Positions 4,206 to 30,503 of a DNA stretch of 64,000 bases are shown piece by piece. A model generated the notes under the pieces. The model did no database searches and had not been told where the DNA came from. It was given only the letters and a program-made list of their open reading frames with translations. The position numbers and the translations under genes are program-made. Source of the DNA: Dudresnaya verticillata (lineage: Eukaryota); assembly GCA_977862235.1 (NCBI GenBank), contig OZ374565.1, forward strand, positions 2,356,001 through 2,420,000. Direction: 5' to 3'. Within the stretch, counting starts at the first letter, position 1. Every line of letters starts with the position of its first letter.

Positions 4206-4217
4206 TTTTATTTTTTT
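4205..4217 (+). terminator. RNA polymerase III terminator TTTTTATTTTTTT (in every unit)
   Basis: T5-A-T7 immediately after helix I. Confidence 0.9.
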
Positions 4218-8921: not shown

Positions 8922-9041
8922 ACATTCGGCCATACTACGCAGACATGCTCCGTATCCCATCCCGAACTGCGAAGATAAGTCTCGTCAGGCTGGTTTAGTA
9001 CTGAGGTGAGGGATCACTCTGGAATCGCCAGTGCCGAATGT
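8922..9041 (+). rRNA. 5S rRNA
   Basis: Copy of 4086-4205. Confidence 0.97.
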
Positions 9042-10130
9042 TTTTATTTTTTTGCACCTCATTCCTTCCTCCCCGCCGCCCTCTGCGTACATTGCTGCCT
9101 TGCATACCTCTCCCACAGAATCCCCGACCCACTGCCTCTGTACAGCGTATTCTTTTCACTCGCACTTTTCCCCTTTTCTTGTAAGTGGGAGGGAGTCTGA
9201 GAGTGTTTGCAGGTGTCTAGGGGTTGTTTAGGGTTAGGTCTAGGGTTAGTTTGGTTACTGTGGTACGCGAGGGGCATGATATTGGGAGGGTAAAGGGTCT
9301 AGTGTTGGTGCATGGAATGAATCATGGTGGTGGAAGGAATGGATCAGTGTGGTGGATGAATTGGATTTAGGGACATAGAATTGGATTAGATTTAGTACCC
9401 AGAAGATTGGATCAAGGATCACCACAATCGGATCAAGTCTGGTGGCTGGGGTGAGGGTGGCTTGGACGTTTGTGCTCATAACTTTGGAACGGCTGGGGCT
9501 AGGGAGCTGCTCAGTAGCTGAATCGAAGCGTCTCGTTGCTGCGCATTGCGTAGCGCTCTTACCCTCCTAAATCGACTTTTTGGCGCGTTTCTATGGTGCA
9601 AAACGTCCCCACGGGCCGTCGGCAGCTTTTGAGCAGATCAAATAGGGGTTTGGGGCATGTATGGTTATGGGTGGGTTTAGGGGTGTTAGGGATGTGTCAT
9701 TTTAACGCGTTTAGGAGTGTAGGGAGTGGGAATGAAAGTAGTAAGGATGAGGAAATGGAAAGGGAAGGATGAGAAAGTATAGTACAATGCAGTAATACAA
9801 ATCACGGAATGCATCAGGTTGGGATCCAATAAGGGTGGATGGATTGGATCAACGGAAGTCAAGGCGTTATAGGATTGGATCTAGGGGCTCTGTAAATTAG
9901 ATTGGGTGCTGGTTTCATTGAACCAAGGGGTCAGAACGTCCATGAGCTGGTTGACTGTATTTATATTGAATCCTGCGTTTAGAGTAAATGGTATACGGTT
10001 ATGGGTCATTACTTTAATGCTCCACGTGTACACTACAGTCGGATGGACATTGGACGCAGGAGTCTTTAGTCGATGACGGGGAGTGCAGTTGATGGCGCAT
10101 TTAAATAGGGGTACGGCGGGAACAGCAAGC

Positions 10131-10250
10131 ACATTCGGCCATACTACGCAGACATGCTCCGTATCCCATCCCGAACTGCGAAGATAAGTCTCGTCAGGCT
10201 GGTTTAGTACTGAGGTGAGGGATCACTCTGGAATCGCCAGTGCCGAATGT
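10131..10250 (+). rRNA. 5S rRNA
   Basis: Copy of 4086-4205. Confidence 0.97.
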
Positions 10251-11339
10251 TTTTATTTTTTTGCACCTCATTCCTTCCTCCCCGCCGCCCTCTGCGTACA
10301 TTGCTGCCTTGCATACCTCTCCCACAGAATCCCCGACCCACTGCCTCTGTACAGCGTATTCTTTTCACTCGCACTTTTCCCCTTTTCTTGTAAGTGGGAG
10401 GGAGTCTGAGAGTGTTTGCAGGTGTCTAGGGGTTGTTTAGGGTTAGGTCTAGGGTTAGTTTGGTTACTGTGGTACGCGAGGGGCATGATATTGGGAGGGT
10501 AAAGGGTCTAGTGTTGGTGCATGGAATGAATCATGGTGGTGGAAGGAATGGATCAGTGTGGTGGATGAATTGGATTTAGGGACATAGAATTGGATTAGAT
10601 TTAGTACCCAGAAGATTGGATCAAGGATCACCACAATCGGATCAAGTCTGGTGGCTGGGGTGAGGGTGGCTTGGACGTTTGTGCTCATAACTTTGGAACG
10701 GCTGGGGCTAGGGAGCTGCTCAGTAGCTGAATCGAAGCGTCTCGTTGCTGCGCATTGCGTAGCGCTCTTACCCTCCTAAATCGACTTTTTGGCGCGTTTC
10801 TATGGTGCAAAACGTCCCCACGGGCCGTCGGCAGCTTTTGAGCAGATCAAATAGGGGTTTGGGGCATGTATGGTTATGGGTGGGTTTAGGGGTGTTAGGG
10901 ATGTGTCATTTTAACGCGTTTAGGAGTGTAGGGAGTGGGAATGAAAGTAGTAAGGATGAGGAAATGGAAAGGGAAGGATGAGAAAGTATAGTACAATGCA
11001 GTAATACAAATCACGGAATGCATCAGGTTGGGATCCAATAAGGGTGGATGGATTGGATCAACGGAAGTCAAGGCGTTATAGGATTGGATCTAGGGGCTCT
11101 GTAAATTAGATTGGGTGCTGGTTTCATTGAACCAAGGGGTCAGAACGTCCATGAGCTGGTTGACTGTATTTATATTGAATCCTGCGTTTAGAGTAAATGG
11201 TATACGGTTATGGGTCATTACTTTAATGCTCCACGTGTACACTACAGTCGGATGGACATTGGACGCAGGAGTCTTTAGTCGATGACGGGGAGTGCAGTTG
11301 ATGGCGCATTTAAATAGGGGTACGGCGGGAACAGCAAGC

Positions 11340-11459
11340 ACATTCGGCCATACTACGCAGACATGCTCCGTATCCCATCCCGAACTGCGAAGATAAGTCT
11401 CGTCAGGCTGGTTTAGTACTGAGGTGAGGGATCACTCTGGAATCGCCAGTGCCGAATGT
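11340..11459 (+). rRNA. 5S rRNA
   Basis: Copy of 4086-4205. Confidence 0.97.
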
Positions 11460-12548
11460 TTTTATTTTTTTGCACCTCATTCCTTCCTCCCCGCCGCCCT
11501 CTGCGTACATTGCTGCCTTGCATACCTCTCCCACAGAATCCCCGACCCACTGCCTCTGTACAGCGTATTCTTTTCACTCGCACTTTTCCCCTTTTCTTGT
11601 AAGTGGGAGGGAGTCTGAGAGTGTTTGCAGGTGTCTAGGGGTTGTTTAGGGTTAGGTCTAGGGTTAGTTTGGTTACTGTGGTACGCGAGGGGCATGATAT
11701 TGGGAGGGTAAAGGGTCTAGTGTTGGTGCATGGAATGAATCATGGTGGTGGAAGGAATGGATCAGTGTGGTGGATGAATTGGATTTAGGGACATAGAATT
11801 GGATTAGATTTAGTACCCAGAAGATTGGATCAAGGATCACCACAATCGGATCAAGTCTGGTGGCTGGGGTGAGGGTGGCTTGGACGTTTGTGCTCATAAC
11901 TTTGGAACGGCTGGGGCTAGGGAGCTGCTCAGTAGCTGAATCGAAGCGTCTCGTTGCTGCGCATTGCGTAGCGCTCTTACCCTCCTAAATCGACTTTTTG
12001 GCGCGTTTCTATGGTGCAAAACGTCCCCACGGGCCGTCGGCAGCTTTTGAGCAGATCAAATAGGGGTTTGGGGCATGTATGGTTATGGGTGGGTTTAGGG
12101 GTGTTAGGGATGTGTCATTTTAACGCGTTTAGGAGTGTAGGGAGTGGGAATGAAAGTAGTAAGGATGAGGAAATGGAAAGGGAAGGATGAGAAAGTATAG
12201 TACAATGCAGTAATACAAATCACGGAATGCATCAGGTTGGGATCCAATAAGGGTGGATGGATTGGATCAACGGAAGTCAAGGCGTTATAGGATTGGATCT
12301 AGGGGCTCTGTAAATTAGATTGGGTGCTGGTTTCATTGAACCAAGGGGTCAGAACGTCCATGAGCTGGTTGACTGTATTTATATTGAATCCTGCGTTTAG
12401 AGTAAATGGTATACGGTTATGGGTCATTACTTTAATGCTCCACGTGTACACTACAGTCGGATGGACATTGGACGCAGGAGTCTTTAGTCGATGACGGGGA
12501 GTGCAGTTGATGGCGCATTTAAATAGGGGTACGGCGGGAACAGCAAGC

Positions 12549-12668
12549 ACATTCGGCCATACTACGCAGACATGCTCCGTATCCCATCCCGAACTGCGAA
12601 GATAAGTCTCGTCAGGCTGGTTTAGTACTGAGGTGAGGGATCACTCTGGAATCGCCAGTGCCGAATGT
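12549..12668 (+). rRNA. 5S rRNA
   Basis: Copy of 4086-4205. Confidence 0.97.
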
Positions 12669-13757
12669 TTTTATTTTTTTGCACCTCATTCCTTCCTCCC
12701 CGCCGCCCTCTGCGTACATTGCTGCCTTGCATACCTCTCCCACAGAATCCCCGACCCACTGCCTCTGTACAGCGTATTCTTTTCACTCGCACTTTTCCCC
12801 TTTTCTTGTAAGTGGGAGGGAGTCTGAGAGTGTTTGCAGGTGTCTAGGGGTTGTTTAGGGTTAGGTCTAGGGTTAGTTTGGTTACTGTGGTACGCGAGGG
12901 GCATGATATTGGGAGGGTAAAGGGTCTAGTGTTGGTGCATGGAATGAATCATGGTGGTGGAAGGAATGGATCAGTGTGGTGGATGAATTGGATTTAGGGA
13001 CATAGAATTGGATTAGATTTAGTACCCAGAAGATTGGATCAAGGATCACCACAATCGGATCAAGTCTGGTGGCTGGGGTGAGGGTGGCTTGGACGTTTGT
13101 GCTCATAACTTTGGAACGGCTGGGGCTAGGGAGCTGCTCAGTAGCTGAATCGAAGCGTCTCGTTGCTGCGCATTGCGTAGCGCTCTTACCCTCCTAAATC
13201 GACTTTTTGGCGCGTTTCTATGGTGCAAAACGTCCCCACGGGCCGTCGGCAGCTTTTGAGCAGATCAAATAGGGGTTTGGGGCATGTATGGTTATGGGTG
13301 GGTTTAGGGGTGTTAGGGATGTGTCATTTTAACGCGTTTAGGAGTGTAGGGAGTGGGAATGAAAGTAGTAAGGATGAGGAAATGGAAAGGGAAGGATGAG
13401 AAAGTATAGTACAATGCAGTAATACAAATCACGGAATGCATCAGGTTGGGATCCAATAAGGGTGGATGGATTGGATCAACGGAAGTCAAGGCGTTATAGG
13501 ATTGGATCTAGGGGCTCTGTAAATTAGATTGGGTGCTGGTTTCATTGAACCAAGGGGTCAGAACGTCCATGAGCTGGTTGACTGTATTTATATTGAATCC
13601 TGCGTTTAGAGTAAATGGTATACGGTTATGGGTCATTACTTTAATGCTCCACGTGTACACTACAGTCGGATGGACATTGGACGCAGGAGTCTTTAGTCGA
13701 TGACGGGGAGTGCAGTTGATGGCGCATTTAAATAGGGGTACGGCGGGAACAGCAAGC

Positions 13758-13877
13758 ACATTCGGCCATACTACGCAGACATGCTCCGTATCCCATCCCG
13801 AACTGCGAAGATAAGTCTCGTCAGGCTGGTTTAGTACTGAGGTGAGGGATCACTCTGGAATCGCCAGTGCCGAATGT
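13758..13877 (+). rRNA. 5S rRNA
   Basis: Copy of 4086-4205. Confidence 0.97.
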
Positions 13878-14966
13878 TTTTATTTTTTTGCACCTCATTC
13901 CTTCCTCCCCGCCGCCCTCTGCGTACATTGCTGCCTTGCATACCTCTCCCACAGAATCCCCGACCCACTGCCTCTGTACAGCGTATTCTTTTCACTCGCA
14001 CTTTTCCCCTTTTCTTGTAAGTGGGAGGGAGTCTGAGAGTGTTTGCAGGTGTCTAGGGGTTGTTTAGGGTTAGGTCTAGGGTTAGTTTGGTTACTGTGGT
14101 ACGCGAGGGGCATGATATTGGGAGGGTAAAGGGTCTAGTGTTGGTGCATGGAATGAATCATGGTGGTGGAAGGAATGGATCAGTGTGGTGGATGAATTGG
14201 ATTTAGGGACATAGAATTGGATTAGATTTAGTACCCAGAAGATTGGATCAAGGATCACCACAATCGGATCAAGTCTGGTGGCTGGGGTGAGGGTGGCTTG
14301 GACGTTTGTGCTCATAACTTTGGAACGGCTGGGGCTAGGGAGCTGCTCAGTAGCTGAATCGAAGCGTCTCGTTGCTGCGCATTGCGTAGCGCTCTTACCC
14401 TCCTAAATCGACTTTTTGGCGCGTTTCTATGGTGCAAAACGTCCCCACGGGCCGTCGGCAGCTTTTGAGCAGATCAAATAGGGGTTTGGGGCATGTATGG
14501 TTATGGGTGGGTTTAGGGGTGTTAGGGATGTGTCATTTTAACGCGTTTAGGAGTGTAGGGAGTGGGAATGAAAGTAGTAAGGATGAGGAAATGGAAAGGG
14601 AAGGATGAGAAAGTATAGTACAATGCAGTAATACAAATCACGGAATGCATCAGGTTGGGATCCAATAAGGGTGGATGGATTGGATCAACGGAAGTCAAGG
14701 CGTTATAGGATTGGATCTAGGGGCTCTGTAAATTAGATTGGGTGCTGGTTTCATTGAACCAAGGGGTCAGAACGTCCATGAGCTGGTTGACTGTATTTAT
14801 ATTGAATCCTGCGTTTAGAGTAAATGGTATACGGTTATGGGTCATTACTTTAATGCTCCACGTGTACACTACAGTCGGATGGACATTGGACGCAGGAGTC
14901 TTTAGTCGATGACGGGGAGTGCAGTTGATGGCGCATTTAAATAGGGGTACGGCGGGAACAGCAAGC

Positions 14967-15086
14967 ACATTCGGCCATACTACGCAGACATGCTCCGTAT
15001 CCCATCCCGAACTGCGAAGATAAGTCTCGTCAGGCTGGTTTAGTACTGAGGTGAGGGATCACTCTGGAATCGCCAGTGCCGAATGT
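14967..15086 (+). rRNA. 5S rRNA
   Basis: Copy of 4086-4205. Confidence 0.97.
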
Positions 15087-16175
15087 TTTTATTTTTTTGC
15101 ACCTCATTCCTTCCTCCCCGCCGCCCTCTGCGTACATTGCTGCCTTGCATACCTCTCCCACAGAATCCCCGACCCACTGCCTCTGTACAGCGTATTCTTT
15201 TCACTCGCACTTTTCCCCTTTTCTTGTAAGTGGGAGGGAGTCTGAGAGTGTTTGCAGGTGTCTAGGGGTTGTTTAGGGTTAGGTCTAGGGTTAGTTTGGT
15301 TACTGTGGTACGCGAGGGGCATGATATTGGGAGGGTAAAGGGTCTAGTGTTGGTGCATGGAATGAATCATGGTGGTGGAAGGAATGGATCAGTGTGGTGG
15401 ATGAATTGGATTTAGGGACATAGAATTGGATTAGATTTAGTACCCAGAAGATTGGATCAAGGATCACCACAATCGGATCAAGTCTGGTGGCTGGGGTGAG
15501 GGTGGCTTGGACGTTTGTGCTCATAACTTTGGAACGGCTGGGGCTAGGGAGCTGCTCAGTAGCTGAATCGAAGCGTCTCGTTGCTGCGCATTGCGTAGCG
15601 CTCTTACCCTCCTAAATCGACTTTTTGGCGCGTTTCTATGGTGCAAAACGTCCCCACGGGCCGTCGGCAGCTTTTGAGCAGATCAAATAGGGGTTTGGGG
15701 CATGTATGGTTATGGGTGGGTTTAGGGGTGTTAGGGATGTGTCATTTTAACGCGTTTAGGAGTGTAGGGAGTGGGAATGAAAGTAGTAAGGATGAGGAAA
15801 TGGAAAGGGAAGGATGAGAAAGTATAGTACAATGCAGTAATACAAATCACGGAATGCATCAGGTTGGGATCCAATAAGGGTGGATGGATTGGATCAACGG
15901 AAGTCAAGGCGTTATAGGATTGGATCTAGGGGCTCTGTAAATTAGATTGGGTGCTGGTTTCATTGAACCAAGGGGTCAGAACGTCCATGAGCTGGTTGAC
16001 TGTATTTATATTGAATCCTGCGTTTAGAGTAAATGGTATACGGTTATGGGTCATTACTTTAATGCTCCACGTGTACACTACAGTCGGATGGACATTGGAC
16101 GCAGGAGTCTTTAGTCGATGACGGGGAGTGCAGTTGATGGCGCATTTAAATAGGGGTACGGCGGGAACAGCAAGC

Positions 16176-16295
16176 ACATTCGGCCATACTACGCAGACAT
16201 GCTCCGTATCCCATCCCGAACTGCGAAGATAAGTCTCGTCAGGCTGGTTTAGTACTGAGGTGAGGGATCACTCTGGAATCGCCAGTGCCGAATGT
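16176..16295 (+). rRNA. 5S rRNA
   Basis: Copy of 4086-4205. Confidence 0.97.
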
Positions 16296-17384
16296 TTTTA
16301 TTTTTTTGCACCTCATTCCTTCCTCCCCGCCGCCCTCTGCGTACATTGCTGCCTTGCATACCTCTCCCACAGAATCCCCGACCCACTGCCTCTGTACAGC
16401 GTATTCTTTTCACTCGCACTTTTCCCCTTTTCTTGTAAGTGGGAGGGAGTCTGAGAGTGTTTGCAGGTGTCTAGGGGTTGTTTAGGGTTAGGTCTAGGGT
16501 TAGTTTGGTTACTGTGGTACGCGAGGGGCATGATATTGGGAGGGTAAAGGGTCTAGTGTTGGTGCATGGAATGAATCATGGTGGTGGAAGGAATGGATCA
16601 GTGTGGTGGATGAATTGGATTTAGGGACATAGAATTGGATTAGATTTAGTACCCAGAAGATTGGATCAAGGATCACCACAATCGGATCAAGTCTGGTGGC
16701 TGGGGTGAGGGTGGCTTGGACGTTTGTGCTCATAACTTTGGAACGGCTGGGGCTAGGGAGCTGCTCAGTAGCTGAATCGAAGCGTCTCGTTGCTGCGCAT
16801 TGCGTAGCGCTCTTACCCTCCTAAATCGACTTTTTGGCGCGTTTCTATGGTGCAAAACGTCCCCACGGGCCGTCGGCAGCTTTTGAGCAGATCAAATAGG
16901 GGTTTGGGGCATGTATGGTTATGGGTGGGTTTAGGGGTGTTAGGGATGTGTCATTTTAACGCGTTTAGGAGTGTAGGGAGTGGGAATGAAAGTAGTAAGG
17001 ATGAGGAAATGGAAAGGGAAGGATGAGAAAGTATAGTACAATGCAGTAATACAAATCACGGAATGCATCAGGTTGGGATCCAATAAGGGTGGATGGATTG
17101 GATCAACGGAAGTCAAGGCGTTATAGGATTGGATCTAGGGGCTCTGTAAATTAGATTGGGTGCTGGTTTCATTGAACCAAGGGGTCAGAACGTCCATGAG
17201 CTGGTTGACTGTATTTATATTGAATCCTGCGTTTAGAGTAAATGGTATACGGTTATGGGTCATTACTTTAATGCTCCACGTGTACACTACAGTCGGATGG
17301 ACATTGGACGCAGGAGTCTTTAGTCGATGACGGGGAGTGCAGTTGATGGCGCATTTAAATAGGGGTACGGCGGGAACAGCAAGC

Positions 17385-17473
17385 ACATTCGGCCATACTA
17401 CGCAGACATGCTCCGTATCCCATCCCGAACTGCGAAGATAAGTCTCGTCAGGCTGGTTTAGTACTGAGGTGAG
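17385..17473 (+). pseudogene. 5' fragment (nt 1-89) of the 5S gene interrupted by element copy 2
   Basis: Matches 5S through ...agtactgaggtgag, then switches to element sequence ttcaactttataacagg. Confidence 0.95.
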
Positions 17474-17574
17474 TTCAACTTTATAACAGGTGACCATATT
17501 CTAATATTTGTCGACGTACAATCTACTGTAGTATCACAACAAAGTTAAACCCCAACTCAAAACAACCTGCACAT

Positions 17575-20500
17575 CTACACCTCCTGTTGGATCCCTTCCA
17601 TCAGGCACTTGACGTTGTTCTGCACCAGTCGCGCCGCGTGCCTGTGGAACAGAGCCGCTCGCGAAACACCGCGAGTTACCATGGCCCGAGAAGCCACGGT
17701 ATCCGCCAACTCTTGCATATACTTGTGCGCCTCCGGGTGCCAGCCACCTAGTGTGGTCATCGGCACCGGCACAAGCCTTGCCCCCGGTCCGGCAGCCTGG
17801 ATGAAGCCACGGTAAGTCCGCACCTTGTCAGCGTGGGCGTTCTTCAGCGTCCCTTGCGGGTTTGTTATGCAGCTGAGAATGCGTTGTTCTGACGACAGTG
17901 GATGACTGATTGTGACGTCCAGGTAGTCCGTTCCTCCTTCTGTTCCAAGCGCCTTGATGTCCGGCCGATCCAAGTGAGCCCCCACAGGGCGGGGCTCCAC
18001 AATCGGGGTGCGTGTCGCACGTTTCAGATCCGAAGCCAGCAGACGAACCTGAGAGTCGTGGCGCCACGACCGAGGAGATCCGCTGTTCCGCATGCCGTTC
18101 GGACAAATCAGCAGATGGTCGCCGTGAACATCCATCATCTTCTTGCACCCGGCCCGAGGACACTCCGTGTCGGGTTCCAGCAGTGGAATCCGACAGTAGA
18201 ATCGAAGCCATACGCGGTAGTCCCGATCCGCAATGTACGTCTTCATGCCTGGTGCCGGCTGGCACTTGAGCCAGTCCTTGGCGCCCGGCACGCCAAGGGA
18301 AGCTCGGAAAGCTTGCGTCCGCCTGTCCCCGAGCGGCAGCTCGGCTTGCACTTTCTTCAGAACCAACCGCGTCAAGTCCCGCTGGCGCGGGCACTCGTCG
18401 CTGTCGATCTTCTCCAGGTCCAGGGCATCCTCACTATGGCACTTGGCGCTCCAGTCTTCGTGCGCTTCTACTGCAAAAGGATCGTCAGAAAGAGCAGTGT
18501 TCACAGAAGCGGGTAAGATAGAACGCAGTAAGTTGCGGGTCAGTGAAAGGGACGCCAAAAACGCGCTCGAGTTCATGTCGCCAGCTCCCGAAATACCGAT
18601 TCCGAAGCTGGGCTCTTTCGTGCGCAGGGGAAGCTGAAGTTCGCGGAAGGTGTCCCTCGGTAGGACTCCTCCCACGAGCTTGCGCATGCAAGCCTCAATC
18701 TTCTGGTCGAAGAGCTCGGCGCCCTTTGCCGTGGCGGATGATGGAACTACTCGCAGCAGGTAGTTCAGCCGGCAGACTCCGGCACAGTTGCGGAGTAGAG
18801 TGATGGCCACGTGTAGGTCTTCTAGTCCCGAAATTGCGTCCAGCAGGGGCTGGATGGACTCGACATGGCCATTCACGCTCTCCTCCATGTAGTTCTGCGT
18901 TCCAATCGGAGCCTGAAGTACTGTAGTGCCTTCTCCGTAGCTCTGCCCAAGATCCGACGGGTAGGCAGCGCAGTCTTCTGGGTCGGGTGCAGTAGGCCAC
19001 CAAACAGTACACTTGTCCATGCGCAGGTGGAAGCCATAGCCCTTAGCTTCCTCGGAGTCAAAGAAGGACAGAACCTTCCTGAGTACGGCGTGTTTCGCCA
19101 CGATGACGCCGTCGTCCAGGTAGAACAGTGACAGCAGCAAGTTGTTCGCCCCCTCCGCTTGCTGATTGCGGCCCGAGCGCCGCAGGTCGGCGGTGAGTTC
19201 CTTCAACTGTTTGATCAGTGCCTGCAGCACCAAAGCAAACAGTAACGGCCCGAGCGGGTCACCTTGCTGTACACCAGTGACACTCCGCAGTAGAGTGTCA
19301 CCCATCCACAGGTGCGGGCCCTCAGAGTCATAACAGTATCTGACCCACGGTAGTAGTTCAGGCATATGTCGGCGGACCTCCTTCATGAATGCTTTGCGGC
19401 TGACAAGGTTGAAGGCATTCTTCAAGTCCACTTGTAGCAACCCGTAGGACTTGTCATGGCCGTGAGACTTCTGCAGCTTCCGGACCGCGTGTACAATGGC
19501 TTCTGTGCCGCCCGAGGTTGCGACCCCGAGCTGAAGCGGTTCGAGGTATGCCTTGGCCTTGGGAGCGACTCTGGTCATGAGCATAGAGCTCACGAGTCGT
19601 CGGATTGTCTCTCCTACAGCAATGGGGCGGACACCGCCGGTGCGCTTCTTCAGAGCCGTGAGAGGAGCGCTGGCAATCCAAGGCGACAGCTCCGCAGGTC
19701 CTGCGCCGCTGGCCAGCACGTTGACCATTTTGGTGAGCCCGCCAAGCAGGCCCGTGTGCTCGTGAGTGGTCGGGACTGAGAGCAGTTCCTGCAGATGCGT
19801 CGGTGATAGTCCTGTTCCCCCCGAGGCCGAAGCCCGGGGGAACTTGGCCACTGCTTTTCGTACTTCGTCGGCTGTGAAAGGCACGAAGTCAGGCATGGTC
19901 GGCAGCGGTTCGGACTGGTCAAGCTCGTGGTCCGCGTCGGTTTGCGGTACGGACTGCGGGTGCTTGTCCTTCATGGACTGTATCACAGAGTCTGTGGCTG
20001 GGGCGATTCCATCAGAGTCTAGAGCTGCTGCTGCCTTACTGTAGGCGCCCTCCTTTGCAAGGCGAAGGGCTCGTGAGGCATTGATACGGCGTTGCTCTTC
20101 TGCGGAAGGCGCAGTCTGCTCACGGAATGTCGAGCCCTTCAAGGCCTCCTGCCATAGGGCGTCGTAATCCTTGAGTCCCCAGCGTCGGATTCGATCGCGG
20201 AAGGTGCCGATCGAGGACGCAGAGGTTGACGCGCTGGCCCTTGCACTCGCCGCGGGAGGATTGGACAAGACGGCTGCTGGAAAAAGCAGGAATGCAGTGA
20301 GCTCTTTGGTGGCTTCCTGAGAGTTGGTTGTGTTCGTAAAAGCCCATACCGTCTTGGACAGTGCGTCGCGCACCTCGGCGCGGACGCGAGACGGTATATG
20401 TGTGACCATAGGGATATGCGAGCGACAGATGTCTTCGACCGCCGGCAGAAGCTGCCCTCCTGGACCCCGCGCAACGGGTGGGGTTTGCGCAGTTGGTACC

Positions 20501-21063
20501 TCTCGAGTAGCAGGTACCGGTGCAGGAGGCGGCTCCTGGCTGTCCGGGATTCGTCGCGGGGCTGGCAGGATATCGTCCGCTGGCTCGCCGTCCTCGGGTT
20601 GCGTCTCCGTGACCGCGTCCAGAGCAGGAGACTGTGATGGCGCGGCTACAGTTTCTTCACGGCTCGGTGTCGTCAATTGGTTGGACGGGACGTGGGAGAA
20701 CGCCGGAGTGCGAGTAGCGGGACATGCGCTGCAATTCTTGTACCGCATACTGTACATGCCTTCACTGTTCATGCGGGAGCTACAGTGGGTGGGCATGTAC
20801 TTGTTGTGAGTCACACAGTACCATACTCCATAGTCCAGGAGCTGCTGCTTGAGAGGCTCGATGTCGGTCCTCGTCGGTGGTCCTCGCCTGCCAGGAACAT
20901 GCATCTTCCGCAGGTGCATGAGTAGCGCTTCTACAGTAGGCAGTGAGGACGACTGGCAGCCCAGAGGACAGCTGGTACTGTTTGTCGGGCGGTGTTTTGC
21001 CGAAGGCATAAAGCATGGAGAGAGCCATACCTTCGGCATGTCGGGGTGCTGCTGACCAATCAT
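17575..21063 (-). CDS. Non-LTR retrotransposon polyprotein (zinc fingers, reverse transcriptase, CCHC knuckle, restriction-like endonuclease), 1162 aa
   Basis: C2H2 finger C32-x3-C-x13-H-x4-H. RT motifs GVRPIAVGETIRRL, QLGV..GGTEAIVH, VDLKNAFN, GVQQGDPLGPLLF and YLDD. Knuckle CPRAGC-x9-H-x3-C, RHD, and endonuclease RPDI...LDVTI...KVRTY. Confidence 0.96.
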   Translation of the reverse strand: MIGQQHPDMPKVWLSPCFMPSAKHRPTNSTSCPLGCQSSSLPTVEALLMHLRKMHVPGRRGPPTRTDIEPLKQQLLDYGVWYCVTHNKYMPTHCSSRMNSEGMYSMRYKNCSACPATRTPAFSHVPSNQLTTPSREETVAAPSQSPALDAVTETQPEDGEPADDILPAPRRIPDSQEPPPAPVPATREVPTAQTPPVARGPGGQLLPAVEDICRSHIPMVTHIPSRVRAEVRDALSKTVWAFTNTTNSQEATKELTAFLLFPAAVLSNPPAASARASASTSASSIGTFRDRIRRWGLKDYDALWQEALKGSTFREQTAPSAEEQRRINASRALRLAKEGAYSKAAAALDSDGIAPATDSVIQSMKDKHPQSVPQTDADHELDQSEPLPTMPDFVPFTADEVRKAVAKFPRASASGGTGLSPTHLQELLSVPTTHEHTGLLGGLTKMVNVLASGAGPAELSPWIASAPLTALKKRTGGVRPIAVGETIRRLVSSMLMTRVAPKAKAYLEPLQLGVATSGGTEAIVHAVRKLQKSHGHDKSYGLLQVDLKNAFNLVSRKAFMKEVRRHMPELLPWVRYCYDSEGPHLWMGDTLLRSVTGVQQGDPLGPLLFALVLQALIKQLKELTADLRRSGRNQQAEGANNLLLSLFYLDDGVIVAKHAVLRKVLSFFDSEEAKGYGFHLRMDKCTVWWPTAPDPEDCAAYPSDLGQSYGEGTTVLQAPIGTQNYMEESVNGHVESIQPLLDAISGLEDLHVAITLLRNCAGVCRLNYLLRVVPSSATAKGAELFDQKIEACMRKLVGGVLPRDTFRELQLPLRTKEPSFGIGISGAGDMNSSAFLASLSLTRNLLRSILPASVNTALSDDPFAVEAHEDWSAKCHSEDALDLEKIDSDECPRQRDLTRLVLKKVQAELPLGDRRTQAFRASLGVPGAKDWLKCQPAPGMKTYIADRDYRVWLRFYCRIPLLEPDTECPRAGCKKMMDVHGDHLLICPNGMRNSGSPRSWRHDSQVRLLASDLKRATRTPIVEPRPVGAHLDRPDIKALGTEGGTDYLDVTISHPLSSEQRILSCITNPQGTLKNAHADKVRTYRGFIQAAGPGARLVPVPMTTLGGWHPEAHKYMQELADTVASRAMVTRGVSRAALFHRHAARLVQNNVKCLMEGIQQEV

Positions 21064-21803
21064 GGTTACAGCGCTGGGTAAGGTACCTGTAAAGGTCCTC
21101 TACAGTAGGTTCCCACGGGGCACAGGCCTCCTAACCGGGACGCAAGCCTGTCGTCCGTCGTCAGTCTGTTCGGGACACCTCCAGAGGGTGCTACAGGTGG
21201 CCTTGCTGCGAGATGAGGGCCTCTTCGCAGCGTAGGGCGCGAGATCGCGCACTTTGCGCACGAGCTCGCGCAAAAGGGCGCGCGTGTTAGCGTTCGTGCG
21301 CGCAGAGTTATCGGACGTTCCCTTCCCTGCCGCAGCTGAGAAGACTCTCTTCACTGCGGTCCTGTAACGCGCGGTACTTCTCGTTTGCACAAGCTCTCAA
21401 TGGGGTCGCAGAACCACCGTTTACCTGTGAGTGCCCACAGGATTTTTGGCCTCCCCCGAAGGTTCGCTGGCAGGACGTTCGCTCGATCTTAGAAGGGGTG
21501 GTTTCAAAACAGGATCCACCAGGCTTAAGCCACGTTACCCCAACTTCGACGTTGCTTGGCACGTTTCTGCGATGAGCTTGTGGGTCACGAGCCGCCTACC
21601 ACTCAAGGTCGAGGGTCTTTGGCGATTCCCACACTTGTAGGTCTCTCGGCACTTCCCGAAGGAAGATTTTACAGGACAAGCCTGGCCTTTACCAATCTGT
21701 CAGTTGAAGGGTGTGAAACCCCTCTGTCGACAGTCCACGGCAGCCTAGACAGAGTCTAGGCTGTGCCGGGTACAAGCAAAACGCGTACAGGGCCAGGGAA
21801 AGA

Positions 21804-21849
21804 AAGATAAGTCAGTGGGGCCCGGGCAAATTTCAAGGTGAGGGATCAC
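21804..21849 (+). promoter_or_regulatory. 5S internal-control-region mimic in element 5' UTR, copy 2
   Basis: Box A match 21804-21813 and box C match 21836-21849. Confidence 0.65.
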
Positions 21850-22120
21850 CTTAAAAGTAAGCGCAAAATAGGAAACGCGTGACCGTCGGCGACGACGGCG
21901 GCGGCGACGGCGGCGACGACGACGGCGTCGCGGCGCAGATCGGCGGCGCGGAAAGAGACAAAAGTAGACCGCGCTCGCCCGCCCGCGAAGGTGAAGGGCT
22001 GAAAAACCCCGCACCGACGCGCCGTCGCGCGCTCGAACAGGCGGCACCGCCGCCGAAAAGATCGGTGCAGAACTTGCTGAGAAATCTCCGAAACAAAAAA
22101 TTCGGCAGATCGCGAGGGGT

Positions 22121-22160
22121 TGAGGTGAGGGATCACTCTGGAATCGCCAGTGCCGAATGT
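22121..22160 (+). pseudogene. 3' fragment (nt 81-120) of the 5S gene interrupted by copy 2
   Basis: tgaggtgagggatcac...gccgaatgt. Confidence 0.93.
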
Positions 22161-23249
22161 TTTTATTTTTTTGCACCTCATTCCTTCCTCCCCGCCGCCC
22201 TCTGCGTACATTGCTGCCTTGCATACCTCTCCCACAGAATCCCCGACCCACTGCCTCTGTACAGCGTATTCTTTTCACTCGCACTTTTCCCCTTTTCTTG
22301 TAAGTGGGAGGGAGTCTGAGAGTGTTTGCAGGTGTCTAGGGGTTGTTTAGGGTTAGGTCTAGGGTTAGTTTGGTTACTGTGGTACGCGAGGGGCATGATA
22401 TTGGGAGGGTAAAGGGTCTAGTGTTGGTGCATGGAATGAATCATGGTGGTGGAAGGAATGGATCAGTGTGGTGGATGAATTGGATTTAGGGACATAGAAT
22501 TGGATTAGATTTAGTACCCAGAAGATTGGATCAAGGATCACCACAATCGGATCAAGTCTGGTGGCTGGGGTGAGGGTGGCTTGGACGTTTGTGCTCATAA
22601 CTTTGGAACGGCTGGGGCTAGGGAGCTGCTCAGTAGCTGAATCGAAGCGTCTCGTTGCTGCGCATTGCGTAGCGCTCTTACCCTCCTAAATCGACTTTTT
22701 GGCGCGTTTCTATGGTGCAAAACGTCCCCACGGGCCGTCGGCAGCTTTTGAGCAGATCAAATAGGGGTTTGGGGCATGTATGGTTATGGGTGGGTTTAGG
22801 GGTGTTAGGGATGTGTCATTTTAACGCGTTTAGGAGTGTAGGGAGTGGGAATGAAAGTAGTAAGGATGAGGAAATGGAAAGGGAAGGATGAGAAAGTATA
22901 GTACAATGCAGTAATACAAATCACGGAATGCATCAGGTTGGGATCCAATAAGGGTGGATGGATTGGATCAACGGAAGTCAAGGCGTTATAGGATTGGATC
23001 TAGGGGCTCTGTAAATTAGATTGGGTGCTGGTTTCATTGAACCAAGGGGTCAGAACGTCCATGAGCTGGTTGACTGTATTTATATTGAATCCTGCGTTTA
23101 GAGTAAATGGTATACGGTTATGGGTCATTACTTTAATGCTCCACGTGTACACTACAGTCGGATGGACATTGGACGCAGGAGTCTTTAGTCGATGACGGGG
23201 AGTGCAGTTGATGGCGCATTTAAATAGGGGTACGGCGGGAACAGCAAGC

Positions 23250-23369
23250 ACATTCGGCCATACTACGCAGACATGCTCCGTATCCCATCCCGAACTGCGA
23301 AGATAAGTCTCGTCAGGCTGGTTTAGTACTGAGGTGAGGGATCACTCTGGAATCGCCAGTGCCGAATGT
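23250..23369 (+). rRNA. 5S rRNA
   Basis: Copy of 4086-4205. Confidence 0.97.
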
Positions 23370-24458
23370 TTTTATTTTTTTGCACCTCATTCCTTCCTCC
23401 CCGCCGCCCTCTGCGTACATTGCTGCCTTGCATACCTCTCCCACAGAATCCCCGACCCACTGCCTCTGTACAGCGTATTCTTTTCACTCGCACTTTTCCC
23501 CTTTTCTTGTAAGTGGGAGGGAGTCTGAGAGTGTTTGCAGGTGTCTAGGGGTTGTTTAGGGTTAGGTCTAGGGTTAGTTTGGTTACTGTGGTACGCGAGG
23601 GGCATGATATTGGGAGGGTAAAGGGTCTAGTGTTGGTGCATGGAATGAATCATGGTGGTGGAAGGAATGGATCAGTGTGGTGGATGAATTGGATTTAGGG
23701 ACATAGAATTGGATTAGATTTAGTACCCAGAAGATTGGATCAAGGATCACCACAATCGGATCAAGTCTGGTGGCTGGGGTGAGGGTGGCTTGGACGTTTG
23801 TGCTCATAACTTTGGAACGGCTGGGGCTAGGGAGCTGCTCAGTAGCTGAATCGAAGCGTCTCGTTGCTGCGCATTGCGTAGCGCTCTTACCCTCCTAAAT
23901 CGACTTTTTGGCGCGTTTCTATGGTGCAAAACGTCCCCACGGGCCGTCGGCAGCTTTTGAGCAGATCAAATAGGGGTTTGGGGCATGTATGGTTATGGGT
24001 GGGTTTAGGGGTGTTAGGGATGTGTCATTTTAACGCGTTTAGGAGTGTAGGGAGTGGGAATGAAAGTAGTAAGGATGAGGAAATGGAAAGGGAAGGATGA
24101 GAAAGTATAGTACAATGCAGTAATACAAATCACGGAATGCATCAGGTTGGGATCCAATAAGGGTGGATGGATTGGATCAACGGAAGTCAAGGCGTTATAG
24201 GATTGGATCTAGGGGCTCTGTAAATTAGATTGGGTGCTGGTTTCATTGAACCAAGGGGTCAGAACGTCCATGAGCTGGTTGACTGTATTTATATTGAATC
24301 CTGCGTTTAGAGTAAATGGTATACGGTTATGGGTCATTACTTTAATGCTCCACGTGTACACTACAGTCGGATGGACATTGGACGCAGGAGTCTTTAGTCG
24401 ATGACGGGGAGTGCAGTTGATGGCGCATTTAAATAGGGGTACGGCGGGAACAGCAAGC

Positions 24459-24578
24459 ACATTCGGCCATACTACGCAGACATGCTCCGTATCCCATCCC
24501 GAACTGCGAAGATAAGTCTCGTCAGGCTGGTTTAGTACTGAGGTGAGGGATCACTCTGGAATCGCCAGTGCCGAATGT
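24459..24578 (+). rRNA. 5S rRNA
   Basis: Copy of 4086-4205. Confidence 0.97.
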
Positions 24579-25667
24579 TTTTATTTTTTTGCACCTCATT
24601 CCTTCCTCCCCGCCGCCCTCTGCGTACATTGCTGCCTTGCATACCTCTCCCACAGAATCCCCGACCCACTGCCTCTGTACAGCGTATTCTTTTCACTCGC
24701 ACTTTTCCCCTTTTCTTGTAAGTGGGAGGGAGTCTGAGAGTGTTTGCAGGTGTCTAGGGGTTGTTTAGGGTTAGGTCTAGGGTTAGTTTGGTTACTGTGG
24801 TACGCGAGGGGCATGATATTGGGAGGGTAAAGGGTCTAGTGTTGGTGCATGGAATGAATCATGGTGGTGGAAGGAATGGATCAGTGTGGTGGATGAATTG
24901 GATTTAGGGACATAGAATTGGATTAGATTTAGTACCCAGAAGATTGGATCAAGGATCACCACAATCGGATCAAGTCTGGTGGCTGGGGTGAGGGTGGCTT
25001 GGACGTTTGTGCTCATAACTTTGGAACGGCTGGGGCTAGGGAGCTGCTCAGTAGCTGAATCGAAGCGTCTCGTTGCTGCGCATTGCGTAGCGCTCTTACC
25101 CTCCTAAATCGACTTTTTGGCGCGTTTCTATGGTGCAAAACGTCCCCACGGGCCGTCGGCAGCTTTTGAGCAGATCAAATAGGGGTTTGGGGCATGTATG
25201 GTTATGGGTGGGTTTAGGGGTGTTAGGGATGTGTCATTTTAACGCGTTTAGGAGTGTAGGGAGTGGGAATGAAAGTAGTAAGGATGAGGAAATGGAAAGG
25301 GAAGGATGAGAAAGTATAGTACAATGCAGTAATACAAATCACGGAATGCATCAGGTTGGGATCCAATAAGGGTGGATGGATTGGATCAACGGAAGTCAAG
25401 GCGTTATAGGATTGGATCTAGGGGCTCTGTAAATTAGATTGGGTGCTGGTTTCATTGAACCAAGGGGTCAGAACGTCCATGAGCTGGTTGACTGTATTTA
25501 TATTGAATCCTGCGTTTAGAGTAAATGGTATACGGTTATGGGTCATTACTTTAATGCTCCACGTGTACACTACAGTCGGATGGACATTGGACGCAGGAGT
25601 CTTTAGTCGATGACGGGGAGTGCAGTTGATGGCGCATTTAAATAGGGGTACGGCGGGAACAGCAAGC

Positions 25668-25787
25668 ACATTCGGCCATACTACGCAGACATGCTCCGTA
25701 TCCCATCCCGAACTGCGAAGATAAGTCTCGTCAGGCTGGTTTAGTACTGAGGTGAGGGATCACTCTGGAATCGCCAGTGCCGAATGT
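25668..25787 (+). rRNA. 5S rRNA
   Basis: Copy of 4086-4205. Confidence 0.97.
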
Positions 25788-26876
25788 TTTTATTTTTTTG
25801 CACCTCATTCCTTCCTCCCCGCCGCCCTCTGCGTACATTGCTGCCTTGCATACCTCTCCCACAGAATCCCCGACCCACTGCCTCTGTACAGCGTATTCTT
25901 TTCACTCGCACTTTTCCCCTTTTCTTGTAAGTGGGAGGGAGTCTGAGAGTGTTTGCAGGTGTCTAGGGGTTGTTTAGGGTTAGGTCTAGGGTTAGTTTGG
26001 TTACTGTGGTACGCGAGGGGCATGATATTGGGAGGGTAAAGGGTCTAGTGTTGGTGCATGGAATGAATCATGGTGGTGGAAGGAATGGATCAGTGTGGTG
26101 GATGAATTGGATTTAGGGACATAGAATTGGATTAGATTTAGTACCCAGAAGATTGGATCAAGGATCACCACAATCGGATCAAGTCTGGTGGCTGGGGTGA
26201 GGGTGGCTTGGACGTTTGTGCTCATAACTTTGGAACGGCTGGGGCTAGGGAGCTGCTCAGTAGCTGAATCGAAGCGTCTCGTTGCTGCGCATTGCGTAGC
26301 GCTCTTACCCTCCTAAATCGACTTTTTGGCGCGTTTCTATGGTGCAAAACGTCCCCACGGGCCGTCGGCAGCTTTTGAGCAGATCAAATAGGGGTTTGGG
26401 GCATGTATGGTTATGGGTGGGTTTAGGGGTGTTAGGGATGTGTCATTTTAACGCGTTTAGGAGTGTAGGGAGTGGGAATGAAAGTAGTAAGGATGAGGAA
26501 ATGGAAAGGGAAGGATGAGAAAGTATAGTACAATGCAGTAATACAAATCACGGAATGCATCAGGTTGGGATCCAATAAGGGTGGATGGATTGGATCAACG
26601 GAAGTCAAGGCGTTATAGGATTGGATCTAGGGGCTCTGTAAATTAGATTGGGTGCTGGTTTCATTGAACCAAGGGGTCAGAACGTCCATGAGCTGGTTGA
26701 CTGTATTTATATTGAATCCTGCGTTTAGAGTAAATGGTATACGGTTATGGGTCATTACTTTAATGCTCCACGTGTACACTACAGTCGGATGGACATTGGA
26801 CGCAGGAGTCTTTAGTCGATGACGGGGAGTGCAGTTGATGGCGCATTTAAATAGGGGTACGGCGGGAACAGCAAGC

Positions 26877-26996
26877 ACATTCGGCCATACTACGCAGACA
26901 TGCTCCGTATCCCATCCCGAACTGCGAAGATAAGTCTCGTCAGGCTGGTTTAGTACTGAGGTGAGGGATCACTCTGGAATCGCCAGTGCCGAATGT
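26877..26996 (+). rRNA. 5S rRNA
   Basis: Copy of 4086-4205. Confidence 0.97.
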
Positions 26997-28085
26997 TTTT
27001 ATTTTTTTGCACCTCATTCCTTCCTCCCCGCCGCCCTCTGCGTACATTGCTGCCTTGCATACCTCTCCCACAGAATCCCCGACCCACTGCCTCTGTACAG
27101 CGTATTCTTTTCACTCGCACTTTTCCCCTTTTCTTGTAAGTGGGAGGGAGTCTGAGAGTGTTTGCAGGTGTCTAGGGGTTGTTTAGGGTTAGGTCTAGGG
27201 TTAGTTTGGTTACTGTGGTACGCGAGGGGCATGATATTGGGAGGGTAAAGGGTCTAGTGTTGGTGCATGGAATGAATCATGGTGGTGGAAGGAATGGATC
27301 AGTGTGGTGGATGAATTGGATTTAGGGACATAGAATTGGATTAGATTTAGTACCCAGAAGATTGGATCAAGGATCACCACAATCGGATCAAGTCTGGTGG
27401 CTGGGGTGAGGGTGGCTTGGACGTTTGTGCTCATAACTTTGGAACGGCTGGGGCTAGGGAGCTGCTCAGTAGCTGAATCGAAGCGTCTCGTTGCTGCGCA
27501 TTGCGTAGCGCTCTTACCCTCCTAAATCGACTTTTTGGCGCGTTTCTATGGTGCAAAACGTCCCCACGGGCCGTCGGCAGCTTTTGAGCAGATCAAATAG
27601 GGGTTTGGGGCATGTATGGTTATGGGTGGGTTTAGGGGTGTTAGGGATGTGTCATTTTAACGCGTTTAGGAGTGTAGGGAGTGGGAATGAAAGTAGTAAG
27701 GATGAGGAAATGGAAAGGGAAGGATGAGAAAGTATAGTACAATGCAGTAATACAAATCACGGAATGCATCAGGTTGGGATCCAATAAGGGTGGATGGATT
27801 GGATCAACGGAAGTCAAGGCGTTATAGGATTGGATCTAGGGGCTCTGTAAATTAGATTGGGTGCTGGTTTCATTGAACCAAGGGGTCAGAACGTCCATGA
27901 GCTGGTTGACTGTATTTATATTGAATCCTGCGTTTAGAGTAAATGGTATACGGTTATGGGTCATTACTTTAATGCTCCACGTGTACACTACAGTCGGATG
28001 GACATTGGACGCAGGAGTCTTTAGTCGATGACGGGGAGTGCAGTTGATGGCGCATTTAAATAGGGGTACGGCGGGAACAGCAAGC

Positions 28086-28205
28086 ACATTCGGCCATACT
28101 ACGCAGACATGCTCCGTATCCCATCCCGAACTGCGAAGATAAGTCTCGTCAGGCTGGTTTAGTACTGAGGTGAGGGATCACTCTGGAATCGCCAGTGCCG
28201 AATGT
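28086..28205 (+). rRNA. 5S rRNA
   Basis: Copy of 4086-4205. Confidence 0.97.
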
Positions 28206-29294
28206 TTTTATTTTTTTGCACCTCATTCCTTCCTCCCCGCCGCCCTCTGCGTACATTGCTGCCTTGCATACCTCTCCCACAGAATCCCCGACCCACTGCC
28301 TCTGTACAGCGTATTCTTTTCACTCGCACTTTTCCCCTTTTCTTGTAAGTGGGAGGGAGTCTGAGAGTGTTTGCAGGTGTCTAGGGGTTGTTTAGGGTTA
28401 GGTCTAGGGTTAGTTTGGTTACTGTGGTACGCGAGGGGCATGATATTGGGAGGGTAAAGGGTCTAGTGTTGGTGCATGGAATGAATCATGGTGGTGGAAG
28501 GAATGGATCAGTGTGGTGGATGAATTGGATTTAGGGACATAGAATTGGATTAGATTTAGTACCCAGAAGATTGGATCAAGGATCACCACAATCGGATCAA
28601 GTCTGGTGGCTGGGGTGAGGGTGGCTTGGACGTTTGTGCTCATAACTTTGGAACGGCTGGGGCTAGGGAGCTGCTCAGTAGCTGAATCGAAGCGTCTCGT
28701 TGCTGCGCATTGCGTAGCGCTCTTACCCTCCTAAATCGACTTTTTGGCGCGTTTCTATGGTGCAAAACGTCCCCACGGGCCGTCGGCAGCTTTTGAGCAG
28801 ATCAAATAGGGGTTTGGGGCATGTATGGTTATGGGTGGGTTTAGGGGTGTTAGGGATGTGTCATTTTAACGCGTTTAGGAGTGTAGGGAGTGGGAATGAA
28901 AGTAGTAAGGATGAGGAAATGGAAAGGGAAGGATGAGAAAGTATAGTACAATGCAGTAATACAAATCACGGAATGCATCAGGTTGGGATCCAATAAGGGT
29001 GGATGGATTGGATCAACGGAAGTCAAGGCGTTATAGGATTGGATCTAGGGGCTCTGTAAATTAGATTGGGTGCTGGTTTCATTGAACCAAGGGGTCAGAA
29101 CGTCCATGAGCTGGTTGACTGTATTTATATTGAATCCTGCGTTTAGAGTAAATGGTATACGGTTATGGGTCATTACTTTAATGCTCCACGTGTACACTAC
29201 AGTCGGATGGACATTGGACGCAGGAGTCTTTAGTCGATGACGGGGAGTGCAGTTGATGGCGCATTTAAATAGGGGTACGGCGGGAACAGCAAGC

Positions 29295-29414
29295 ACATTC
29301 GGCCATACTACGCAGACATGCTCCGTATCCCATCCCGAACTGCGAAGATAAGTCTCGTCAGGCTGGTTTAGTACTGAGGTGAGGGATCACTCTGGAATCG
29401 CCAGTGCCGAATGT
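29295..29414 (+). rRNA. 5S rRNA
   Basis: Copy of 4086-4205. Confidence 0.97.
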
Positions 29415-30503
29415 TTTTATTTTTTTGCACCTCATTCCTTCCTCCCCGCCGCCCTCTGCGTACATTGCTGCCTTGCATACCTCTCCCACAGAATCCCCGA
29501 CCCACTGCCTCTGTACAGCGTATTCTTTTCACTCGCACTTTTCCCCTTTTCTTGTAAGTGGGAGGGAGTCTGAGAGTGTTTGCAGGTGTCTAGGGGTTGT
29601 TTAGGGTTAGGTCTAGGGTTAGTTTGGTTACTGTGGTACGCGAGGGGCATGATATTGGGAGGGTAAAGGGTCTAGTGTTGGTGCATGGAATGAATCATGG
29701 TGGTGGAAGGAATGGATCAGTGTGGTGGATGAATTGGATTTAGGGACATAGAATTGGATTAGATTTAGTACCCAGAAGATTGGATCAAGGATCACCACAA
29801 TCGGATCAAGTCTGGTGGCTGGGGTGAGGGTGGCTTGGACGTTTGTGCTCATAACTTTGGAACGGCTGGGGCTAGGGAGCTGCTCAGTAGCTGAATCGAA
29901 GCGTCTCGTTGCTGCGCATTGCGTAGCGCTCTTACCCTCCTAAATCGACTTTTTGGCGCGTTTCTATGGTGCAAAACGTCCCCACGGGCCGTCGGCAGCT
30001 TTTGAGCAGATCAAATAGGGGTTTGGGGCATGTATGGTTATGGGTGGGTTTAGGGGTGTTAGGGATGTGTCATTTTAACGCGTTTAGGAGTGTAGGGAGT
30101 GGGAATGAAAGTAGTAAGGATGAGGAAATGGAAAGGGAAGGATGAGAAAGTATAGTACAATGCAGTAATACAAATCACGGAATGCATCAGGTTGGGATCC
30201 AATAAGGGTGGATGGATTGGATCAACGGAAGTCAAGGCGTTATAGGATTGGATCTAGGGGCTCTGTAAATTAGATTGGGTGCTGGTTTCATTGAACCAAG
30301 GGGTCAGAACGTCCATGAGCTGGTTGACTGTATTTATATTGAATCCTGCGTTTAGAGTAAATGGTATACGGTTATGGGTCATTACTTTAATGCTCCACGT
30401 GTACACTACAGTCGGATGGACATTGGACGCAGGAGTCTTTAGTCGATGACGGGGAGTGCAGTTGATGGCGCATTTAAATAGGGGTACGGCGGGAACAGCA
30501 AGC

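Follow-up and report, generated by a model that had tools for sequence, protein, structure and literature searches.

A likely active CRE-like retrotransposon lying antisense in the 5S rRNA genes of Dudresnaya verticillata

Introduction

Retrotransposons that lack long terminal repeats (non-LTR) and are equipped with a restriction-like endonuclease (RLE) are known from rRNA, spliced leader (SL), U2, tRNA, microsatellite and telomeric targets. Described here is a ~4.6-kb element found in 5S rRNA genes of Dudresnaya verticillata (assembly GCA_977862235.1, contig OZ374565.1, positions 2,356,001 to 2,420,000 of the forward strand), a stretch of 64,000 nucleotides called the window throughout. Most probably (we put the chance at roughly 85%) the element is a non-LTR retrotransposon that is autonomous, likely remains active, carries a CRE-type RLE and would insert antisense into 5S genes through target-primed reverse transcription (TPRT).

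The CRE clade (CRE1/2, SLACS and CZAR; fungal MoTeR1, FoTeR and Cnl1) shares with this element one open reading frame (ORF), a zinc finger, a reverse transcriptase (RT), a C-terminal CCHC/RLE region and target duplications of variable size (PMC12278014, PMC12857005). The spacing of the RHD-E-RPD-D core is likewise that of the clade (PMC12857005), and in protein size (~1150-1180 aa) the element is like FoTeR (PMC12278014). Unlike these elements, it targets 5S nt 89 rather than SL RNA genes or telomeric repeats, is tail-less, has longer zinc-knuckle spacers, lies antisense to its target gene and carries 5S promoter boxes in its 5' untranslated region (UTR). R2 (R2Bm, R2Tg, R2Pm), which supplies the closest solved structures in Foldseek searches, is also a single-ORF RT-RLE element that enters rDNA by TPRT. 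It differs in its 28S target and in its protein, which is only 16-17% identical, whereas the element described here occupies an RNA polymerase III (Pol III) gene, in antisense orientation and with duplications of 9-14 bp. An R2-type 5' ribozyme like that of hepatitis delta virus was not found in the 5S element, nor was any other ribozyme family, by Rfam at E values up to 10; its 5' UTR is structured.

tRNA genes, absent from the RLE targets listed in a preliminary description of this DNA, are already known as such: NeSL-1_TV, LIN15_SM and LIN25_SM insert there, LIN25 near the tRNA 5' end (PMC4640811). These are NeSL-related elements in sense orientation, past whose 3' ends the tRNA continues with its downstream part, and the accessible part of that source reports none of them in 5S genes (PMC4640811).

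The invaders of 5S genes found in the literature (Mutsu, Dada-5S, TRE5-A) rely on different enzymes and, as far as this is stated, on different sites. Mutsu is a Tx1-clade element whose endonuclease is of the apurinic/apyrimidinic type (APE). Like the present element, it is an autonomous non-LTR retrotransposon that is site-specific inside 5S genes of tandem arrays, in zebrafish; it differs in having two ORFs, a length of ~5.5 kb, a poly(A) stretch and an insertion site ~20 nt from the 5S 5' end (PMC5340908). With one ORF, insertion at nt 89 and no tail, close kinship of our element with Mutsu is not indicated. Dada-5S is a DDE DNA transposon, and Dada lineages have shifted between tRNA A boxes and 5S (PMC8869645). 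TRE5-A is antisense like the 5S element, but its endonuclease is an APE and its insertion sites lie 37-41 bp upstream of 5S (PMC5911963), while Jockey-like elements of Tribolium interrupt 5S-associated satellite arrays (PMC11202950). Further literature was compared for 5S invaders (PMC10946416, PMC13580325, PMC13586686, PMC13708176, PMC9977147). No RLE element in 5S genes was found in the literature searched, as far as its accessible parts go and with Repbase and Fell et al. 2025 outside the search; the latter, which according to PMC13586686 surveyed 4,464 animal assemblies, may include RLE families with 5S flanks.

Four insertions in one 5S array

Rfam finds 38 5S matches in the window (35 full and 3 partial), on the + strand. 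The genes form a tandem array with a 1209-bp unit (Table 1), and 39 units are present: 35 intact, all identical, and 4 that carry the antisense element. The 5S sequence seems similar to that of florideophyte red algae, which serves as a lead on the host. As the preliminary description had stated, every copy sits in a 5S gene: a BLAST search of the window with copy 2 matched four places only, each within a 5S gene, and none in the ~1.09-kb spacer that makes up 90% of the unit. Copy counts and positions refer throughout to the 64-kb window.

At the 3' end, the claim of identical junctions survives for the position and fails for the sequence. The 5S match stops after nt 89 in all three visible cases, and in copies 2 and 4 nt 89 runs straight into the element's 3' end; in copy 3, 17 extra nt (CTC plus 5S nt 76-89) intervene between nt 89 and the element, and identity holds for the last 14 bases only. 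This insert equals the filler plus duplication as they occur at the 5' junctions of both copy 3 and copy 4. Possible origins are an abortive earlier insertion that was re-targeted, the remnant of a deleted tandem partner, and the 3' end of an RNA released from a tandem transcript by cleavage. As a separate observation, the CTC lengthens a palindrome centred on 5S nt 78/79.

The 5' junctions all differ, as had been reported: 5S resumes at nt 80, 81, 76 and 76 in copies 1 to 4, with target duplications of 10, 9, 14 and 14 bp respectively and 1-4 extra nt at every junction. In copies 2 and 3 the element has its whole 5' end, of which ~12 nt are missing in copy 1 and ~38 nt in copy 4. A fixed 3' end, a variable 5' end, target duplications and the lack of long terminal repeats together form the footprint of TPRT. 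Because the element is antisense and its cDNA would be the + strand running from the left junction, the primer would be the + strand 3'-OH after nt 89, in agreement with the first nick proposed earlier (+ strand, nt 89/90). The chance of three independent nicks at the same base of the 1209-bp unit is about (1/1209)^2 = 7e-7.

In pairwise comparison the copies are 98.7-99.8% identical, with 8-53 internal differences, and the flanking 5S units show 0 differences. Copies 2 and 4 differ at just 8 of 4605 sites (99.8%) yet have unlike 5' ends and duplications, so one DNA-level duplication would not account for both. Since the four 5' junctions differ, and since the copies differ internally while the surrounding 5S units do not, the insertions appear to be independent of one another, which upholds the target-primed events first proposed from the junctions. 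These patterns point to several source copies giving rise to independent, recent insertions; array-wide copying of one insertion does not explain the data.

The ORF is open at 1162 aa in all three complete copies, again as first described, and in copy 1 it is open up to the window edge. The ratio of non-synonymous to synonymous polymorphism (pN/pS) is 0.11-0.40 in all six copy pairs (copies 2 and 3, for example, differ by 27 synonymous and 12 non-synonymous changes), and the coding sequence is under purifying selection between copies. High identity, low pN/pS and open ORFs are consistent with the recent activity suggested earlier, and present-day activity is likely. An assembly artefact was considered and judged unlikely, given that the copies have distinct junctions and distinct, mostly synonymous differences. 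One sequencing run (X1, 6% of words) covered the stretch in 11 of 30 bins, as short pieces with no joints.

The protein and its classification

Motifs, a Pfam RVT_1 match and structural alignments to R2 agree with the order zinc finger, RT, CCHC, endonuclease that had been read from the sequence of the encoded protein, here P0001. RVT_1 is the only Pfam family found in P0001, with no APE family, and its best PDB sequence matches are R2 proteins, followed by LINE-1, as befits a non-LTR RT. A C-terminal CCHC knuckle and an endonuclease of PD-(D/E)xK type are recognised by motif across aa 968-1080. The single ORF and the N-terminal CCHH finger, the latter also present in the proteins P0004 and P0005, fit those of CRE elements. 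The AlphaFold model of P0001 has a mean predicted local distance difference test score (pLDDT) of 82.7 and a predicted template modelling score (pTM) of 0.80; the endonuclease domain was judged within this full-length model. Foldseek with the model ranks seven R2 chains at the top, over 900-1040 columns.

The endonuclease core published for SLACS/CRE elements is RH(D/N)-x19-33-E-x9-21-(R/K)PD-x12-14-(D/E) (PMC12857005), and the core of P0001, RHD-x19-E-x9-RPD-x13-D, falls within that spacing. Trypanosomatid CRE elements combine an SL RNA target with, in general, a poly(A) tail; here the target is 5S and there is no A tail. SLACS/CRE1/CZAR proper are excluded by target and tail, and the wider CRE clade is not. 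The R2 family is marked off in the same way, the target being 5S and not 28S. Protein searches returned no named CRE reference among their matches, an Atlas search gave generic RVT_1 clusters only, a cluster look-up of the nine closest relatives gave no names, and no CRE-type structure came up in PDB searches. The element is an RLE-type non-LTR retrotransposon and resembles CRE elements, its clade placement being drawn from motifs and not from a tree with reference elements.

Relatives at tRNA genes

The nearest proteins to P0001 are 33-56% identical at full length, and two short proteins, each on a 3056-bp contig, reach 73-80%. In an RT tree the query falls in a clade of 35 rows with a Shimodaira-Hasegawa-like approximate likelihood ratio (SH-aLRT) of 99; eight metagenome loci lie inside it, three of them with both flanks. 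The tree comprises 71 of the 201 proteins that had enough coverage, plus 15 loci, carries SH-aLRT support only, and includes no named CRE reference and no R2 or NeSL reference as outgroup; proteins were sampled by taking all 27 at >=38% identity, the named ones and every fifth of the rest.

Two of the three clade loci with both flanks lie at tRNA genes. In L002 (41% identity) and L009 (37%) the element is antisense, and its 5' end adjoins the 5' end of an intact gene, tRNA-Arg(ACG) and tRNA-Ala(TGC) respectively. In both, the first 8-9 tRNA nt are repeated at the element's 3' end (in L009 the repeat includes ~20 bp of upstream DNA), and the duplication restores the tRNA gene. In L002 the repeated tRNA nt are followed by what appears to be the truncated 5' end of an older related copy at the same site. 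The geometry is common to the 5S element, L002 and L009: antisense orientation, a promoter box as the place where the RNA-like strand is nicked, and a short duplication. The lineage thus likely has a leaning towards Pol III genes, although the evidence, two decayed copies, is thin.

Relatives at tRNA genes and this element at 5S, always antisense and in a promoter box, with no shared sequence seen around the nicks, are also what would be expected if the element were tethered to host Pol III factors (TFIIIA, TFIIIC or TFIIIB), like TRE5-A or Ty3, instead of reading DNA. TRE5-A, whose ORF1 protein binds TFIIIB, lies antisense beside tRNA genes and is found near 5S as well (PMC5911963). The nick, however, is base-exact and falls in the C box, where bound TFIIIA should protect the DNA, and RLE elements such as R2 are established to read DNA directly. 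Tethering, although the strongest of the competing explanations, is improbable next to direct recognition of the 5S site.

A little more improbable still is a loose specificity in which a short motif or Pol III chromatin is preferred at many genomic sites and the 5S-specific appearance is an effect of the window. The window is itself a 5S array, with no wider genome in the count; the relative L004 has no recognisable target; and the strength of specificity varies among Utopia families (PMC4640811). Set against this are the single base of 1209, on one strand, used by all three visible nicks, and the absence of all four copies from the spacer. A site-specific element of the 5S gene remains the better account.

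Rfam applied to 80 metagenome loci gave two tRNA matches and no 5S, and BLAST and nhmmer searches of the metagenome loci with this 5S returned nothing significant, most loci being without flanks. The absence of 5S in these loci does not show that 5S targeting is unique, because most of them are short as well as flankless.

Several minor features of the relatives may be recorded here. L002 has a 324-codon open frame ahead of its RT ORF. P0005, P0066 and L004 (~4100-4750) have an extra domain ahead of the RT; PF02902, presumably a Ulp1-type protease, is listed for P0005, and a similar-looking stretch occurs in L004. A Ulp1-type protease domain is known in NeSL elements. CRE-like RT fragments on five short contigs in prokaryote genome bins (L081-L085) are probably eukaryotic contamination. 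A tRNA-like match in L076, obtained at a relaxed ARAGORN threshold, was dropped, as Rfam did not confirm it.

5S promoter boxes in the 5' UTR

Two segments of the 5S gene, nt 51-60 and nt 83-96, which we take to be the A-box and C-box regions, are copied exactly and at their native 32-nt offset on the + strand of the 5' UTR in all four copies. 5S sequence outside the boxes matches the UTR at background level (9/50 before, 6/24 after). Two exact words in register, 24 nt in sum, were attained in none of 5000 shuffles (maximum 21) and, in the same test over 85 loci (390 kb), by none (maximum 16); the pattern was absent from viral contigs. The + strand is free of T4 runs from 21754 to the 5S terminator at 22160. 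The C-box copy lies within an extended hairpin, and in the sense RNA its 14-mer is predicted to sit in an 11-bp hairpin. The UTR copy spans the nick site but deviates from 5S at nt 76-82, a change that may keep the element from cutting itself.

Cassandra, Ajax and SINE3 likewise keep 5S promoter boxes while their remaining 5S sequence has diverged (PMC10886601 for Ajax and SINE3). They differ in being short and non-autonomous, with boxes proposed (for Cassandra, shown) to drive their own RNA, whereas here the boxes are antisense, ~300 nt inside the 5' UTR, and belong to an autonomous element that targets 5S. Tentatively, with odds somewhat short of even, the box copies would bind host TFIIIA/TFIIIC and either hold the 5' UTR open in the array or drive an antisense transcript of ~410 nt.

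An exact 14-nt complement across nt 89/90 in all four copies could also be thought to act in RNA, the sense transcript pairing with 5S + strand nt 83-96 and nt 51-60 and helping target choice. The predicted hairpin would lock up the 14-mer, and the native spacing and restriction to two boxes better fit a promoter remnant like those of Ajax and SINE3 (PMC10886601), which leaves pairing very improbable and a promoter role for the boxes preferable.

Proposed mechanism and its standing

What the window shows directly is where the element lies, its orientation, its target duplications, its intact ORFs and its domain motifs; the steps that connect them are proposed. The protein would bind the RNA that encodes it as well as the 5S site, with the N-terminal zinc finger and the endonuclease probably making the contacts, and would nick the + (RNA-like) strand at nt 89/90, halfway through the C box. 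The free 3'-OH would prime cDNA synthesis at the exact, tail-less 3' end of the RNA. The second strand would be cut before nt 76-81, at a distance of 9-14 bp to the left, and would be joined to the cDNA with 1-4 extra nt, which would yield both the target duplication and the variable 5' ends. As nt 80-97 presumably constitute the C box, the main TFIIIA site, an insertion would split the promoter and likely inactivate that 5S gene; 4 of the 39 units in the window are interrupted, and the host retains many intact 5S copies. The RT lineage is likely specialised on Pol III genes, because its relatives show the same geometry at tRNA nt 9.

Several points weigh against this account. The counts come from one window that is itself a 5S array, in which copies outside 5S genes could not be counted. 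L004, the remaining relative for which both flanks are available, has neither an RNA gene nor a duplication, and the tRNA-flanked relatives are single, decayed copies whose branching order relative to the query the tree leaves unsettled. In VIA-align, LINE-1 chains outrank R2 by Z (26.2 versus 22.2), although the R2 alignments are the longest (704-775 residues) and extend to residue 1160-1161, while most LINE-1 alignments end before the endonuclease. The element has no poly(A) tail. The strict CRE knuckle is C-x1-3-C-x7-8-H-x3-4-C-x9-10-RH(D/N) (PMC12857005), and the knuckle of P0001, C-x4-C-x9-H-x3-C-x13-RHD, lies outside it; this pattern was derived from a few trypanosomatid elements and is matched by only 2 of 68 screened proteins. 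For the boxes, a looser ungapped score (+2/-1) was not significant, 81 of 1500 shuffles reaching the 5S-box match, and the in-register test was picked after the match had been noticed. The evidence as a whole is sequence and predicted structure.

The weakest competitor supposes that unequal crossing over or gene conversion spread a single old insertion through the array, in which case the shared site would reflect descent and not targeting. It could draw on the complete homogeneity of the 35 intact units, which implies strong DNA-level turnover, and on the near-identity of copies 2 and 4, but it is largely refuted by four 5' junctions that differ in truncation point, extra bases and duplication length, and by elements that diverge up to 1.3% under purifying selection between invariant flanks.

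A broader extension of targeted insertion is doubtful in its full form: an undescribed CRE-type RLE lineage specialised on Pol III genes, antisense in promoter boxes (tRNA nt 9, 5S nt 89), whose 5S member would be the first RLE element known on 5S, with a working copy of the 5S promoter that it destroys bringing TFIIIA/TFIIIC to the element's 5' end, for its expression or for antisense self-control, and with the bases just upstream changed against self-cutting. That the RLE class switches among multicopy RNA genes is known; notable here are the 5S target, not found described for this class in the literature searched, the antisense orientation without a tail, the kin at tRNA genes and the 5S boxes inside the 5' UTR.

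If targeted insertion is borne out, 5S rDNA joins the targets of RLE retrotransposons, and a tRNA 5' end and a 5S C box within one lineage would make a natural pair for studying the retargeting of such enzymes. Biochemistry would also gain a CRE-type enzyme that is intact, compact (1162 aa) and tail-less; current insertion tools are mostly R2 at 28S. With their many conserved copies, 5S arrays are a possible landing site, though the host's sequence there presumably differs from that of vertebrates. The embedded boxes bear on the expression or control of an element that lies antisense in a Pol III array.

Element anatomy and additional observations

Table 1. Features of the 5S array, its four element copies and two tRNA-flanked relatives (positions in the window, except for L002 and L009, which are numbered within their own loci)
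Feature	Position	Strand	Remarks
5S rDNA tandem array	4086..63980	+	
Copy 1, 5' part only, cut by window edge	1..2995	-	element 1-2953; 2 extra nt; 5S nt 80 resumes at 2956
Copy 2, full-length element, 4643 bp	17474..22116	-	antisense to 5S; junction comparison and BLAST
Copy 3 and split 5S gene	36549..41345	-	5S nt 1-89; 17 extra nt (36638-36654); element 36655-41297; CTC; 5S nt 76 resumes at 41301; ORF 36756-40244
Copy 4 and split 5S gene	43644..48383	-	element 43733-48337; 5S nt 76 resumes at 48339; ORF 43834-47322
Copy 2: 5S rRNA gene nt 1-89, left of insertion	17385..17473	+	putative first nick after nt 89
Copy 2: 3' UTR, 101 nt	17474..17574	-	no poly(A) tail
Copy 2: single ORF, 1162 aa (P0001)	17575..21063	-	
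Copy 2: restriction-like endonuclease core, aa 1001-1049, with likely catalytic Lys 1080	17824..18063	-	RHD-x19-E-x9-RPD-x13-D; motif match; K aligns to R2Tg
Copy 2: CCHC zinc knuckle, aa 968-987	18103..18162	-	
Copy 2: reverse transcriptase, aa 472-688	19000..19650	-	Pfam RVT_1, E 1.2e-16; active site YLDD aa 648-651
Copy 2: N-terminal CCHH zinc-finger motif, aa 32-55	20899..20970	-	low model confidence
Copy 2: 5' UTR, 1053 nt	21064..22116	-	folding versus shuffles
Copy 2: exact copy of 5S nt 51-60 (presumed A-box region) in 5' UTR	21804..21813	+	antisense to element
Copy 2: exact copy of 5S nt 83-96 (presumed C-box region, across nick site) in 5' UTR	21836..21849	+	32-nt native offset from A-box copy; in hairpin
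Box copies, whole span in copy 2	21804-21849	+	other copies at 2653, 40985, 48063
Copy 2: 5S nt 81-120, right of insertion	22121..22160	+	4 extra nt in front, at 22117-22120; target duplication of 9 bp (nt 81-89)
L002, insertion at tRNA-Arg(ACG)	3302-3376 and 8075-8255		antisense, tRNA nt 8-9
L009, insertion at tRNA-Ala(TGC)	3383-3478 and 7918-7948		antisense, tRNA nt 8-9

Stretches of the 5' UTR fold more stably than shuffled sequence, with z of about -2 to -3.6 across its first 500 nt. A very stable RNA structure (z -4.7) is predicted at 21167-21316 (- strand), ~100-250 nt before the ATG, and may act in translation or in protein binding. This structure is overlapped by an open frame of ~100 codons that has no ATG and stops 13 codons ahead of the ORF start. 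Open frames of 204 and 159 aa on the + strand lie opposite the element's ORF or UTR. The 5S spacers (for example 16470-16510) contain short degenerate TTAGGG-like repeats and show a strong G skew on the + strand.

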